Shown piece by piece: positions 7,738-20,017 of a stretch of DNA of 64,000 bases (position 1 is the first letter of the stretch; the number at the start of each line of letters is the position of its first letter). The DNA comes from Escherichia coli O157:H7. Its GTDB lineage: Bacteria > Pseudomonadota > Gammaproteobacteria > Enterobacterales > Enterobacteriaceae. The stretch lies in assembly GCF_013167455.1 (NCBI RefSeq), contig NZ_CP038328.1. The stretch is one strand, 5' to 3'. A model generated the notes under the pieces. That model was not told the DNA's origin, searched no databases, and saw only the letters and a program-made list of their open reading frames with translations. A program made the position numbers and the translations under genes.

Positions 7738-8592
7738 TTAGTTCTGCGGATTCAACGCGCTAAGGATAAAGTTCACCATCTGTTCGCGATAAACGTCGCC
7801 GTGACGATCGGAAAAAGCATCAATGTGTTCGCCATCCGGGATTAGGATCAACCGTTTTGGCTCTTTTGCCAGGCTATACAACTTTTCGCTGTGCTGCCAT
7901 GGGATAACGTGATCAGCTTTACCGTGAATGAGTAAAAGCGGGATCGGGCTGACGCTGGCGATATAATTTTCGCCGCTGTAACTCTCATCAAGTAAGTAGC
8001 CACTGCCGGGGATCATCTGGTTGGCGATGGTTGCATAAGAGGCAAATGTGGAGTCGAGGATCACTGCACGTATGCCTTCACGATCACCCTGACCAATAAC
8101 AGCAAGAATATTCGCCCCGCCAATACTCTGCCCGAACAGCACCAGCCGTTGTGGGTTTACATCACTGCGATGGCGCACCACATTGATGGCGCTTTGCGTA
8201 TCGTCCAGCAATCCGGCCTGGGACGGCGTGCCTTTTGATTTACCAAACCCGCGATAATCAAACATAAAAACGTTGAAATTACGCTCGGGTAACCAACTGA
8301 CCAGCGGCCAGTGGGCGGACATATTTCCGGCATTGCCGTGAGCATGAATGATGGTTGCGATGGCGTTGTCAGCAGGGCCCGTCGAAGAAGGAATAAACCA
8401 GCCTTGCAGACGAGTACCGTCCTTAGCCGTAAATTCGACGGATTCCGCCGACCAGGGGTCGGGACCGTAAATTTTATCGTCAGGATAATAGAAGAAGTTG
8501 ATGGCAACGCGCGGCACTAAATAAACGCAGAAGGCAACAACAAAGAGAATAAACAGAATTTTGGGAACGCGTTTGTTCACTGGCAGTGCCAT
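7738..8592 (-). CDS. yfhR: Alpha/beta-hydrolase (S9 peptidase-like) membrane-anchored protein
   Basis: ORF track frame 7738..8619; internal ATG at 8592 (MALPVNKR...) is preceded by AAGGAAAGG Shine-Dalgarno, the 8619 ATG is not; N-terminal TM helix, GQSIGG nucleophile elbow. Confidence 0.85.
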   Translation of the reverse strand: MALPVNKRVPKILFILFVVAFCVYLVPRVAINFFYYPDDKIYGPDPWSAESVEFTAKDGTRLQGWFIPSSTGPADNAIATIIHAHGNAGNMSAHWPLVSWLPERNFNVFMFDYRGFGKSKGTPSQAGLLDDTQSAINVVRHRSDVNPQRLVLFGQSIGGANILAVIGQGDREGIRAVILDSTFASYATIANQMIPGSGYLLDESYSGENYIASVSPIPLLLIHGKADHVIPWQHSEKLYSLAKEPKRLILIPDGEHIDAFSDRHGDVYREQMVNFILSALNPQN

Positions 8593-17860: not shown

Positions 17861-17895
17861 CTTGTGCCCCGAACGTTGAATGAATTGTGGTTCTT

Positions 17896-18672
17896 ATGTC
17901 CGAAACAAAAAATGAACTTGAAGACCTGCTGGAAAAAGCAGCAACCGAACCGGCGCACCGCCCGGCCTTTTTCCGTACTCTACTGGAATCCACCGTCTGG
18001 GTGCCTGGTACGGCGGCGCAGGGCGAGGCTGTGGTTGAAGATAGCGCGCTTGATTTACAGCACTGGGAAAAAGAAGACGGCACCAGCGTCATTCCTTTTT
18101 TTACCTCGTTAGAAGCACTTCAACAGGCGGTTGAAGACGAACAGGCATTTGTCGTAATGCCCGTTCGCACATTGTTTGAGATGACCCTTGGCGAAACGCT
18201 CTTCCTTAATGCCAAACTGCCGACCGGTAAAGAATTTATGCCGCGTGAAATCAGTTTGTTGATTGGTGAAGAGGGAAATCCGCTGAGCAGCCAGGAAATC
18301 CTGGAAGGCGGTGAATCGCTGATATTATCGGAAGTCGCAGAGCCGCCAGCACAAATGATTGATTCACTCACCACCTTATTTAAAACCATTAAGCCTGTGA
18401 AGCGTGCTTTTATTTGTTCAATTAAAGAGAACGAAGAGGCACAGCCTAATTTACTTATTGGCATTGAAGCCGATGGTGATATCGAAGAAATTATTCAGGT
18501 GGCGGGAAGTGTAGCGACCGATACATTACCTGGCGATGAACCAATCGATATTTGTCAGGTGAAAAAAGGGGAAAAAGGAATTAGCCACTTTATTACCGAA
18601 CATATTGCGCCATTCTATGAACGTCGCTGGGGTGGTTTTTTGCGTGACTTTAAACAGAATCGGATAATCTAA
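17896..18672 (+). CDS. sseB: Protein SseB (enhances serine sensitivity)
   Basis: ORF track frame 17887..18672; start chosen at MSETKNELEDL (258 aa). Confidence 0.88.
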   Translation: MSETKNELEDLLEKAATEPAHRPAFFRTLLESTVWVPGTAAQGEAVVEDSALDLQHWEKEDGTSVIPFFTSLEALQQAVEDEQAFVVMPVRTLFEMTLGETLFLNAKLPTGKEFMPREISLLIGEEGNPLSSQEILEGGESLILSEVAEPPAQMIDSLTTLFKTIKPVKRAFICSIKENEEAQPNLLIGIEADGDIEEIIQVAGSVATDTLPGDEPIDICQVKKGEKGISHFITEHIAPFYERRWGGFLRDFKQNRII

Positions 18673-19000
18673 AATATGCCGCCCCAAAGGGCGGCATTCG
18701 GGCTTACCTGCTGCTCTGAAGGTTGTTAATCACCAGTAAATTGTCGCCGGAGAGACTCCGGTTATTATTTACCTCGGTTAACAGCGCACCAGAAACAATA
18801 AGTACGATACAGAAGCACCGTATCTTCATTGTGCGGTCCATGCGAAGACCGCATCACGACAGCACCACTGGCGATATTGCCGCGATAGCAAGCACTGTGG
18901 GGTGCCTGTATTTACGGTCATGGAACATTCTTTCCTAAAGCCAGCGCCCGTTTGCGAGACGGCGAAAAGGGCCATTAAGAATAATACTCTCATGTTTGAA
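18670..19000 (-). ncRNA. ryfA: Candidate RyfA-type small RNA locus; boundaries and strand approximate
   Basis: 499 bp tail-to-tail sseB-sseA intergenic region; hairpin at 18677..18695 followed by T-run on minus strand; RyfA is recalled to map between sseA and sseB in E. coli. Confidence 0.3.
18705..18830 (-). CDS. Candidate small hydrophobic protein (41 aa), type I toxin-like (TimP-like?)
   Basis: Hand translation of the minus strand gives MKIRCFCIVLIVSGALLTEVNNNRSLSGDNLLVINNLQSSR; hydrophobic N-terminal 20 aa; no Shine-Dalgarno, and a 7 bp stem (tgcggtc/gaccgca) ends 3 nt before the ATG; below the ORF-track size cutoff. Confidence 0.35.
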
Positions 19001-19125
19001 TAATTACTCTGTTTATTATCTTGGCACAGCCAGGCATAAAAGAGAGTATTTCAACACTGTGGGGTGCCTGCGTTGCTCCGGCAACACAAGTCAACCTGCT
19101 GGAAAGGCCGCGAACCAGACCAGCA

Positions 19126-19158
19126 ATAAAAAACCGCCAAATTCGGCGGTTTTTTATT
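19126..19158. terminator. Bidirectional rho-independent terminator downstream of sseA
   Basis: aaaaaaccgccaaattcggcggtttttt: GC stem flanked by A-run and T-run. Confidence 0.7.
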
Positions 19159-19171
19159 GCCTGTAAAAAGC

Positions 19172-20017
19172 TTATTTCAATGGCTCAACCGGTAAATCTG
19201 CCCGCGCGCCCCATTCACTCCATGCGCCGTCGTACAGTTTCACGTTTGGCACATCCAGCGTCGCGAGTGCCAACAAAACCACGGCTGCTGTTACACCAGA
19301 GCCGCAGCTGACGATAATTGGTTTGTCATAGCTGACGCCGCGACCAAAAAATATCGCATCCAGTTCATCGGTCGTTTTTAGTTCGCCTTCGCGCACCAGT
19401 TCCGTCCACGGAACGTTCAATGCACCGGGAATATGTCCGCGACGTAAACCTGGGCGAGGTTCATCAACTTCTGCGTTAAAACGTGCAGCCGGGCGGGCAT
19501 CAATAATTTGCGCCGTATTTTCATGGCTTGCCAATAACACATCGGTTACTTTCACCACTGCTTCAGGATTAAACGCGGCGTTAAACTCTCCTTCCGGCAG
19601 CTCTACTGCACCTTCTTCTAACAACAGATCATCGCGCTGCCAGCCTGCAAGTCCACCCCCCAGAATCGACACTTTCTCTACACCAAAGGTGCGCAGCATC
19701 CACCATGCTCGTGGGGCTGAGAAAAGATTACCTTCGTCATAGACAATCAGGTGCTTATCCTGGTTAACGCCTAATTCACGCATCGCCACGGCGAACGTTT
19801 CCGGGCGCGGCAGCATGTGCGGAAGCGGGGAAGTGTGATCAGAAAGCGCTTCGATATCAAAAAACACTGCGCCGGGAATATGTCCATTCAGATACTCCTG
19901 AGCAACGTTACGATCTTCCTGTCCAGGCGACGCCATGCGGGCATCGATAATCTGAATTTCCGGGTCATCAATATGTTCGGCGAGCCAGTCGGCTCCTACA
20001 AACCATGTCGTGGACAT
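19172..20017 (-). CDS. sseA: 3-mercaptopyruvate sulfurtransferase (tandem rhodanese domains)
   Basis: ORF track frame 19172..20176; start chosen at MSTTWFVGADWL (281 aa); catalytic Cys loop VSCGSGVTA. Confidence 0.9.
   Translation of the reverse strand: MSTTWFVGADWLAEHIDDPEIQIIDARMASPGQEDRNVAQEYLNGHIPGAVFFDIEALSDHTSPLPHMLPRPETFAVAMRELGVNQDKHLIVYDEGNLFSAPRAWWMLRTFGVEKVSILGGGLAGWQRDDLLLEEGAVELPEGEFNAAFNPEAVVKVTDVLLASHENTAQIIDARPAARFNAEVDEPRPGLRRGHIPGALNVPWTELVREGELKTTDELDAIFFGRGVSYDKPIIVSCGSGVTAAVVLLALATLDVPNVKLYDGAWSEWGARADLPVEPLK

Follow-up and report, generated by a model that had tools for sequence, protein, structure and literature searches.

The spacer between sseB and sseA in the analysed window, a 64,000-nucleotide stretch of the Escherichia coli O157:H7 contig NZ_CP038328.1, very probably carries the O157:H7-type E. 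coli allele of the enterobacterial timPR type I toxin-antitoxin locus. This assignment is supported at the level of sequence: RNA, protein and antitoxin TimR are homologous to known members, the regulatory elements are complementary, a leader pseudoknot shows covariation, as do the TimR seed and its target, and the reading frame is conserved. Of the defining features of timPR and of type I toxin-antitoxin systems, those that are testable in a sequence are present, apart from the helix between leader sites 1 and 2, which pairs in part. The predicted toxin is hydrophobic and shorter than 60 aa, its mRNA is the pairing partner of the RNA antitoxin, and the two genes are neighbours; their functions are presumed. 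The locus is an ordinary copy of a system that was published and annotated before. Curated RNA and protein models exist for it, it is annotated in essentially all complete E. coli genomes, and its presence here adds nothing new. The coordinates of its elements are collected in Table 1.

Table 1. Features of the timPR locus and its neighbourhood in the window.
Feature	Window position	Strand	RNA nucleotides	Description
pepB		+		Part of the sseB–sseA neighbourhood
sseB	17887..18672	+		
sseB–sseA spacer	18673-19171			499 bp
timP mRNA	18671..18975	−		305 nt; historically 'RyfA sRNA'
timP intrinsic terminator	18671..18697	−		9-bp G+C-rich stem, then U tract; found in terminator scan, Rfam structure and fold
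timP CDS	18704..18829	−		41 codons plus stop; ATG at 18829-18827; translation MKIRCFCIVLIVSGALLTEVNNNRSLSGDNLLVINNLQSSR
SL5	18795..18832	−	144-181	AUG and first codons paired with codons 10-12; in Rfam consensus
SL4	18832..18853	−	123-144	Hairpin of the original prediction
Site 4		−	124-129	GCGGUC; SL4 5′ arm
GGA Shine-Dalgarno core	18837-18839	−	137-139	SL4 3′ arm, 7 nt before AUG
SL3	18853..18886	−	90-123	
Site 3	18866-18872	−	104-110	GCCAGUG; within SL3
SL2 and TimR target	18889..18912	−	SL2 68-87; target 64-83	
Site 2	18914..18919	−	57-62	GACCGU; complements site 4, alternatively site 1
SL1	18930..18969	−	7-46	Rfam consensus structure
Site 1	18940-18946	−	30-36	CGCUGGC; within SL1; pseudoknot partner of site 3
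Predicted timP −10	18981..18986	−		TATTAT, 5 nt upstream of mRNA 5′ end; −35 weak; read from sequence
Predicted TimR promoter	19021..19049	+		−35 TTGGCA 19021-19026, 17-nt spacer, −10 GAGTAT 19044-19049
TimR sRNA	19056..19155	+		~100 nt; divergent from timP; 99 of 100 nt aligned to K-12 timR b4811
TimR seed	19056-19070	+	1-15	
TimR 3′ terminator hairpin	19128-19155	+		11 bp; palindrome, also 17 nt past the stop codon of the opposite-strand gene sseA
sseA	stop at 19172	−		
yfhM		+		Beyond sseA

The spacer is 99.8% identical to the spacers of O157:H7-type genomes. With its 5′ end set by homology to K-12 ryfA (b4440), the minus-strand timP transcript matches the Rfam family ryfA (RF00126) along its entire length, at 323.2 bits (E 5e-91, gathering threshold 80) and over model positions 1-296 of 296, and the fold of all 305 nt has z = −3.9. 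In K-12, timP (b4812) lies inside ryfA, and both of these genes and timR (b4811) are located between sseA and sseB. The timP locus was found in 5425 of the 5426 complete E. coli genomes, and a timP annotation is present in 29 of 30 E. coli records sampled across the identity range. The original prediction had placed RyfA in this region as the RNA that encodes TimP, which is borne out by the full-length RF00126 match, the NCBIfam match described below, the RefSeq timP gene and the K-12 genes. Its description of the ORF as unannotated does not hold, as RefSeq carries a timP CDS (WP_001356414.1) at identical coordinates in a near-identical O157-type genome.

The translation of the timP frame had been predicted exactly, whereas the span given with it (18705..18830) was off by one, the true span being that of Table 1. 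The peptide matches the NCBIfam model NF040796 (toxic_TimP), whose family name is "small toxic inner membrane protein TimP", with 88.6 bits (curated cutoff 45), residues 1-40 covering profile positions 1-40 of 40. Its N-terminus is basic (MKIR) and is followed by a hydrophobic core of 13 residues (residues 5-17; mean Kyte-Doolittle 2.86), while the C-terminal half is polar and variable. Within 4.5 kb around timP, 54 ORFs reach 25 aa or more; an ORF this short is common by chance, and the status of timP as a gene therefore rests on homology and not on the ORF by itself. An in-frame ATG at 18841, four codons 5′ of the timP ATG, gives a 45-aa ORF and is the start used in a previous study (PMC8205139). 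We rejected it as a conserved start, because five homologues, from Rahnella, Erwinia and Y. similis, have AAG in its place and NF040796 begins at the second Met. Shortened forms of TimP, 34-37 aa in length, occur in some E. coli and Shigella. A search for homologous proteins with TimP returned Escherichia, Shigella and a few Klebsiella-labelled fragments, and no distant relatives.

Homologous loci were sought by a contig pattern search with GCGGTCNNNGCANNGACCGCAC, which gave at least 120 loci. About 105 of the 120 matches listed are chance occurrences in high-G+C genomes, and no Salmonella locus is among the matches listed. The pattern fixes the bases of SL4, site 4 and the GGA core, so their invariance is no independent evidence. 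Across six genera, none of the 17 homologues compared interrupts the timP frame; its length is 117, 120, 126 or 129 nt, and all length changes are multiples of three. Summed over sequence pairs, the differences at the three codon positions are 1797, 1395 and 2302, and the mean pN/pS is 0.53. Comparisons between genera show a predominance of third-position differences, with pN/pS at 0.45-0.85. Within Escherichia, where few changes exist and counts are small, the differences by position are 30, 27 and 18, pN/pS is ~1, and a codon-like substitution pattern is absent. The N-terminal core MK(I)R-x-CIVLxVSGALL persists as protein sequence although the underlying DNA has diverged. Furthermore, the other forward frames contain 0-4 stops, and in every sequence one of them has at least two. 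The frame data support the reading of timP as a coding gene, probably under moderate constraint. A frame not conserved in relatives had been named, along with a missing ribosome-profiling signal, as the result that would speak against the original prediction; the frame is open in every homologue compared, with a weak signal within Escherichia.

The start region of timP folds into two hairpins, SL4 and SL5. The stem of SL4, tgcggtc/gaccgca, is formed by nt 123-129 and 138-144 (18853-18847 and 18838-18832) around the loop ttcgcatg; it comprises 8 bp at −13.5 kcal/mol (z = −3.6), and 0 of 200 shuffles fold equally well. The hairpin originally predicted is real and is the SL4 of the published work, although only 2 nt (C, A), and not 3, separate it from the AUG. 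SL4 had been thought to occlude the start codon, but it excludes the AUG and hides the GGA core; the AUG (nt 147-149) sits in the 5′ arm of the separate SL5. SL5 folds at −13.7 kcal/mol (z = −5.0, beyond all shuffles). In an alignment of 16 homologues it is 97.5% paired, and hardly any pair has changed on both sides. As for the Shine-Dalgarno sequence, which had been reported missing, a strong AGGAGG is indeed absent, but a minimal GGA core is trapped in SL4. This core comprises only 3 nt (−3.0 kcal/mol against the anti-Shine-Dalgarno sequence), and its occurrence in 16 of 16 sequences is uninformative, since its bases are fixed by the search pattern. In Salmonella, the equivalent of GGA is taken as the Shine-Dalgarno sequence trapped in SL4 (PMC11228461, PMC13000454). 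The minimum free energy fold of the timP mRNA recovers SL2, SL3, SL4, SL5 and the terminator.

The 146-nt timP leader contains the further elements of the Salmonella switch. Nucleotide p of the mRNA corresponds to window position 18976 − p and to Salmonella number p − 2, the Salmonella numbering having been mapped via Citrobacter and published mutant pairs, not by direct alignment. In 13 intact leaders, 96.4% of the cells of the whole structure are paired, compared with 37-49% when the partners are slid, and the individual helices, SL1 included, are 96-100% paired. SL2 folds at −9.2 kcal/mol. Sites 1 and 3 form a pseudoknot of 7 bp in the window that is 100% paired in the 13 leaders, and three of its seven pairs have changed on both sides, a pattern of compensatory change across genera. 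Sites 2 and 4 form 6 bp in the window and are 100% paired in 13 sequences, compared with 40-60% when slid, site 4 being fixed by the search pattern. Specifically, G33/C34 of Salmonella site 1 correspond to nt 35/36 of the window, and the Salmonella definition of site 2 is C57-G59 (PMC13000454). G33-C103, C34-G102, C57-G125 and G125-C138, whose pairing in Salmonella was shown experimentally, all map to complementary bases in the window. In the alternative helix between sites 1 and 2, which is proposed to stabilise the inactive state, U33·G61, G34-C60, G35-C59 and U37·G57 pair, and C36 and A58 form a mismatch at the centre, which the window allele shares with three other Escherichia sequences.

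The divergent antitoxin sRNA of the original prediction is present as a TimR homologue that can form 15-16 contiguous Watson-Crick pairs with the timP leader. In an ungapped pairing search, TimR nt 1-15 pair with leader nt 68-82 in uninterrupted Watson-Crick fashion; the duplex reaches 16 bp (nt 68-83) if TimR starts one base earlier, and the pairing extends to 20 positions with one mismatch and one G·U. The target comprises the loop and 5′ arm of SL2 and lies more than 60 nt upstream of the timP AUG; Salmonella TimR likewise targets SL2 at more than 60 nt from the AUG (PMC7667032). A matching seed is found on the opposite strand in 12 further intact loci, from Escherichia (including K-12), Citrobacter, Superficieibacter, Yersinia, Rahnella and Erwinia. 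It is positioned 229-245 nt upstream of the AUG in 11 of these 12, the best match in K-12 lying at 564 nt, and a T-run follows ~70 nt past the seed in all 12, while the loop sequences differ. Thus SL2 target and TimR seed co-vary, both between the window and K-12 and across genera. The ungapped search took the place of duplex folding, whose values of −66 to −74 kcal/mol for the complete RNAs of TimR and timP covered cognate and non-cognate pairs alike and were discarded as meaningless; its shuffle control was unconvincing (observed −39.9, shuffled mean −31.5, shuffled minimum −42.8).

Compared with Rfam, TimR matches no family at threshold. An AgrB assignment for 19077-19158 was rejected, because its 30.7 bits are below the gathering threshold of 40 and it covers mainly the TimR terminator; AgrB, IS128, rimP leader, Leu leader and RNAI hits at ~19077-19200 all stay below gathering and are centred on the terminator hairpin. 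The terminator scan missed the palindrome shared by TimR and sseA, probably because an A-U extension consumes the T-run, and the hairpin was seen in the fold. The predicted TimR −10 element ends 6 nt before the K-12-derived TimR 5′ end, and the promoter has 8 of 12 matches, below the promoter-scan threshold. The scan flagged neither this promoter nor that predicted for timP; two plus-strand sites that it did return were regarded as not meaningful. The predicted TimR −35 element of this genome carries a private A-to-G change at 19024 (TTGACA to TTGGCA). Promoterless timP copies with intact ORFs occur in C. amalonaticus and two Yersinia species. At the DNA level, TimR seed and target constitute a direct repeat, and deletions of the control region thus appear to have arisen independently in at least two genera.

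The closest described system is timP-TimR of Salmonella enterica, formerly ryfA or STnc2070 (Andresen et al. 2020; Eleftheraki & Holmqvist 2024, 2026; PMC7667032, PMC11228461, PMC13000454). [quoted passage not shown] The alleles differ in that TimP has 41 aa in the window and 38 in Salmonella, with different C-terminal halves (…TEVNNNRSLSGDNLLVINNLQSSR), and in that the window has no STM2534-like gene between sseA and timP. Each allele has its own loop and seed sequences, and the helix of sites 1 and 2 carries its C-A mismatch in the window. In addition, the leader of the window contains a uORF of 31 codons that ends on the timP AUG, whereas that of Salmonella has ~8 codons.

The K-12 locus occupies the same sseA-sseB spacer, encodes a TimP with 39 of 41 residues identical (I34V and R41K in K-12) and has identical SL3, SL4 and SL5. 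Its spacer measures 817 bp, compared with 499 bp in the window, and the overall identity is ~85%. K-12 contains an extra unit of ~325 bp, absent in the window, which comprises a second TimR-like gene and a decayed remnant of the ryfA 5′ part and which Rfam calls IS128. The 5′ arm, loop and 3′ arm of SL2 differ between the two alleles, and the TimR seed differs in a compensating manner (GGCACCCCACAGUG in the window, GGUGUUUCACAGCG in K-12). According to the pairing search, K-12 TimR cannot pair with the site of the window allele, whereas TimR of the window may, by way of G·U pairs, still act on timP of K-12.

RyfA1/RyfA2 and RyfB1 of Shigella dysenteriae (Fris et al. 2017) are homologous to the timP and TimR RNAs of the window; Shigella has sibling copies, whereas the window has a single copy, and its RNAs are described as virulence-modulating sRNAs. 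RyfB1, as cited in PMC7667032, is the homologue of TimR and reduces the level of RyfA1. The window locus resembles the divergently encoded type I loci tisB-istR1, shoB-ohsC, zorO-orzO and dinQ-agrB of E. coli in its small, hydrophobic toxin of membrane type, in the ribosome binding site hidden by RNA structure, and in the divergent sRNA, which is complementary to the toxin leader over a limited stretch. It differs from these systems in two respects: their mRNAs need nucleolytic processing or a standby site, whereas timP is reported to be activated by refolding alone, and TimP has a signal-peptide-like N-terminus (PMC7667032, PMC11228461).

The original prediction of a type I toxin silenced by mRNA structure agrees with the homology, with SL4 and SL5 and with the presence of TimR; the toxicity is carried over from Salmonella. 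There, TimP has been characterised as toxic by means of a start-codon mutant, found in the membrane fraction and placed under TimR control with compensatory mutants (PMC7667032). The start-codon mutation abolished toxicity at an unchanged mRNA level (PMC7667032). The Salmonella timP mRNA forms a pseudoknot, traps its Shine-Dalgarno sequence in SL4 and is reported to be unprocessed (PMC11228461), in which timPR departs, as is known, from the canonical type I scheme, and it switches between pairing of sites 2 and 4 and pairing of sites 1 and 2 (PMC13000454). By analogy, we infer toxicity, membrane targeting, the structural switch and repression by TimR for the E. coli allele.

In such a mechanism, the primary timP transcript would be made constitutively but remain translationally silent, with SL4 hiding the weak Shine-Dalgarno sequence and, as an addition of ours to the Salmonella model, SL5 hiding the AUG. 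[quoted passage not shown] The 5′ end of TimR would bind the SL2 loop of this active fold, break the pseudoknot and block initiation. TimP, by means of its signal-peptide-like N-terminus, would insert into the inner membrane and make it leaky when overproduced.

We weighed three other readings of the locus. The E. coli transcript may have its main role, or a further one, as the regulatory RNA RyfA in stress resistance, fimbriae, motility and virulence, with the ORF dispensable there; such a dual function is compatible with timPR, and we consider it a serious possibility, though short of probable. It draws on work in UPEC CFT073, in which three ORF-disrupted alleles complemented the phenotypes of a ryfA mutant (PMC8205139), and on work in APEC, in which RyfA and TimR are treated as sRNA partners and loss of timR has minimal effect (PMC13188913). 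A trans RNA target or pairing site is not defined in the literature consulted, and the conservation of the frame in six genera with a third-position excess and the non-toxic Salmonella start-codon mutant (PMC7667032) count against this reading. According to the UPEC and APEC studies, no peptide from the ORF was detected in Shigella or E. coli (PMC8205139, PMC13188913); the literature was also searched for ribosome profiling of E. coli TimP, with no specific result. The non-detection of the peptide, the truncated alleles, the promoterless copies with intact ORFs in C. amalonaticus and two Yersinia species, and the differences of 30, 27 and 18 at the codon positions within Escherichia (pN/pS ~1) would suit an ORF that is an evolutionary leftover in Escherichia, kept open only by the overlapping RNA structure of SL5 and the 3′ domain and yielding no functional peptide. 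We hold this to be very unlikely in view of the 17 of 17 open frames with in-frame length changes only, the third-position dominance between genera (pN/pS 0.45-0.85), the hydrophobic N-terminal segment that is kept in the protein despite divergence of the DNA, the stops in the other forward frames (0-4, with at least two in one frame per sequence) and the curated NCBIfam model for the TimP family.

The remaining reading concerns how timP is translated. The leader uORF runs from an AUG at nt 55 (18921) to a UGA at nt 148-150 (18826), overlaps the timP start as AUGA and is preceded by an AGGA-like motif 11-14 nt upstream of its AUG; the TimR site begins 9 nt past this AUG. Translation of Escherichia-type timP could thus be coupled to the uORF in the manner of hok/mok or CopA/tap, with ribosomes on the uORF unwinding SL2-SL4 and TimR blocking the uORF. 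The frame is open to the AUGA in the window, in K-12 (with a GUG start), in two other Escherichia, in a Citrobacter sp. and in Superficieibacter. However, the start position is GCG in E. whittamii, and the frame contains stops and has no start codon in Yersinia, Rahnella and Erwinia. The uORF of Salmonella has ~8 codons, mutation of its AUG left timP translation unaffected (PMC11228461), and its non-conservation was noted by the original authors (PMC7667032). We regard the coupling as most unlikely, and equally so the wider proposal that it forms a control layer beyond the Salmonella model which, together with the TTGGCA −35 element and the weak pairing of sites 1 and 2, favours TimP. If the coupling did operate, the private TTGGCA −35 element and the weakened lock of sites 1 and 2 would shift the balance towards TimP synthesis.

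With the locus read as timPR, a prediction made from letters alone had recovered a true small toxin gene that for two decades was filed as a non-coding RNA. The work in UPEC and APEC argues that the phenotypes of ryfA are borne by the RNA. The O157-type and K-12-type pairs of SL2 target and TimR seed appear to be natural variants of antitoxin specificity.

Three homologous loci lack part of the timP-TimR control region. Relative to two intact relatives (L065 and L005), approximately 155-162 bp are absent from the C. amalonaticus, Y. similis and Y. aleksiciae loci, and the junction lies within the direct repeat made up of the TimR seed and the SL2 target. Both promoters, SL1 and site 2 are lost, and antisense-TimR sequence is joined to SL2-SL4, whereas the timP ORF is preserved. 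Because the antitoxin is complementary to its target, the locus seems to contain an inherent deletion hotspot that Citrobacter and Yersinia have used independently of each other.

Coordinates of the features and loci compared
Feature	Location	Strand	Remarks
Leader ORF, 31 codons (MTVNTGTPQCLLSRQYRQWCCRDAVFAWTAQ)	window 18826-18921	-	start at mRNA nt 55
In-frame AUG in SL4 loop	window 18837-18841	-	mRNA nt 135-137; yields a 45-aa ORF
sseB-sseA spacer, window	window 18673-19171		499 bp
sseB-sseA spacer, K-12	L002 1341-2157		817 bp
Deleted locus, C. amalonaticus	L079 ~8069-8340		
Deleted locus, Y. similis	L070 4554-4837		
Deleted locus, Y. aleksiciae	L115 5125-5409		
Ysr224 match, Y. similis	L070 4361-4467	+	Rfam, 133.9 bits

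The timP leader contains an upstream ORF whose stop codon UGA overlaps the timP start codon (AUGA). Its frame is uninterrupted in Escherichia, Citrobacter sp. and Superficieibacter but broken by stops in Yersinia, Rahnella and Erwinia, and E. whittamii lacks the start codon; the Salmonella counterpart is short and dispensable by experiment (PMC11228461). An in-frame AUG upstream of the timP start was considered as an alternative, and the resulting 45-aa version is the one analysed in the UPEC paper (PMC8205139). Rahnella, Erwinia and Y. similis have AAG at the corresponding position; we therefore rejected this AUG as the conserved timP start and retain the 41-aa start as the conserved one. As a separate observation, Y. 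similis carries an Rfam Ysr224 match directly upstream of, and on the same strand as, a truncated ryfA copy.

The window has a single TimR gene directly back-to-back with timP, whereas the K-12 spacer has an additional unit of ~325 bp, comprising a second TimR-like gene that has its own terminator, together with the decayed remnant of a ryfA 5' part, and matching Rfam IS128 with 261 bits. In 4819 complete E. coli genomes, i.e. most, identity to the window spacer is just 80-90%. Over 3.5 kb, the sole mismatch between the window and O157-type genomes is position 19024 (+), which is G in the window and A in the 554 genomes sharing this promoter type. The G changes the putative TimR -35 box to TTGGCA, as compared with the consensus TTGACA, and none of 5426 complete genomes contains an exact match to the 69-nt stretch around it. 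Either a private regulatory SNP or a sequencing error could account for it.

The O157-type and K-12-type alleles (window 19056-19070 and 18894-18908; K-12 locus L002) differ in both the stem and the loop of SL2 and also in the TimR seed, and these differences compensate one another. K-12 TimR is unable to pair with the target of the window allele because of C x A clashes, while G·U pairs could still let window TimR form a duplex with K-12 timP. The two alleles look like natural antitoxin specificity variants.
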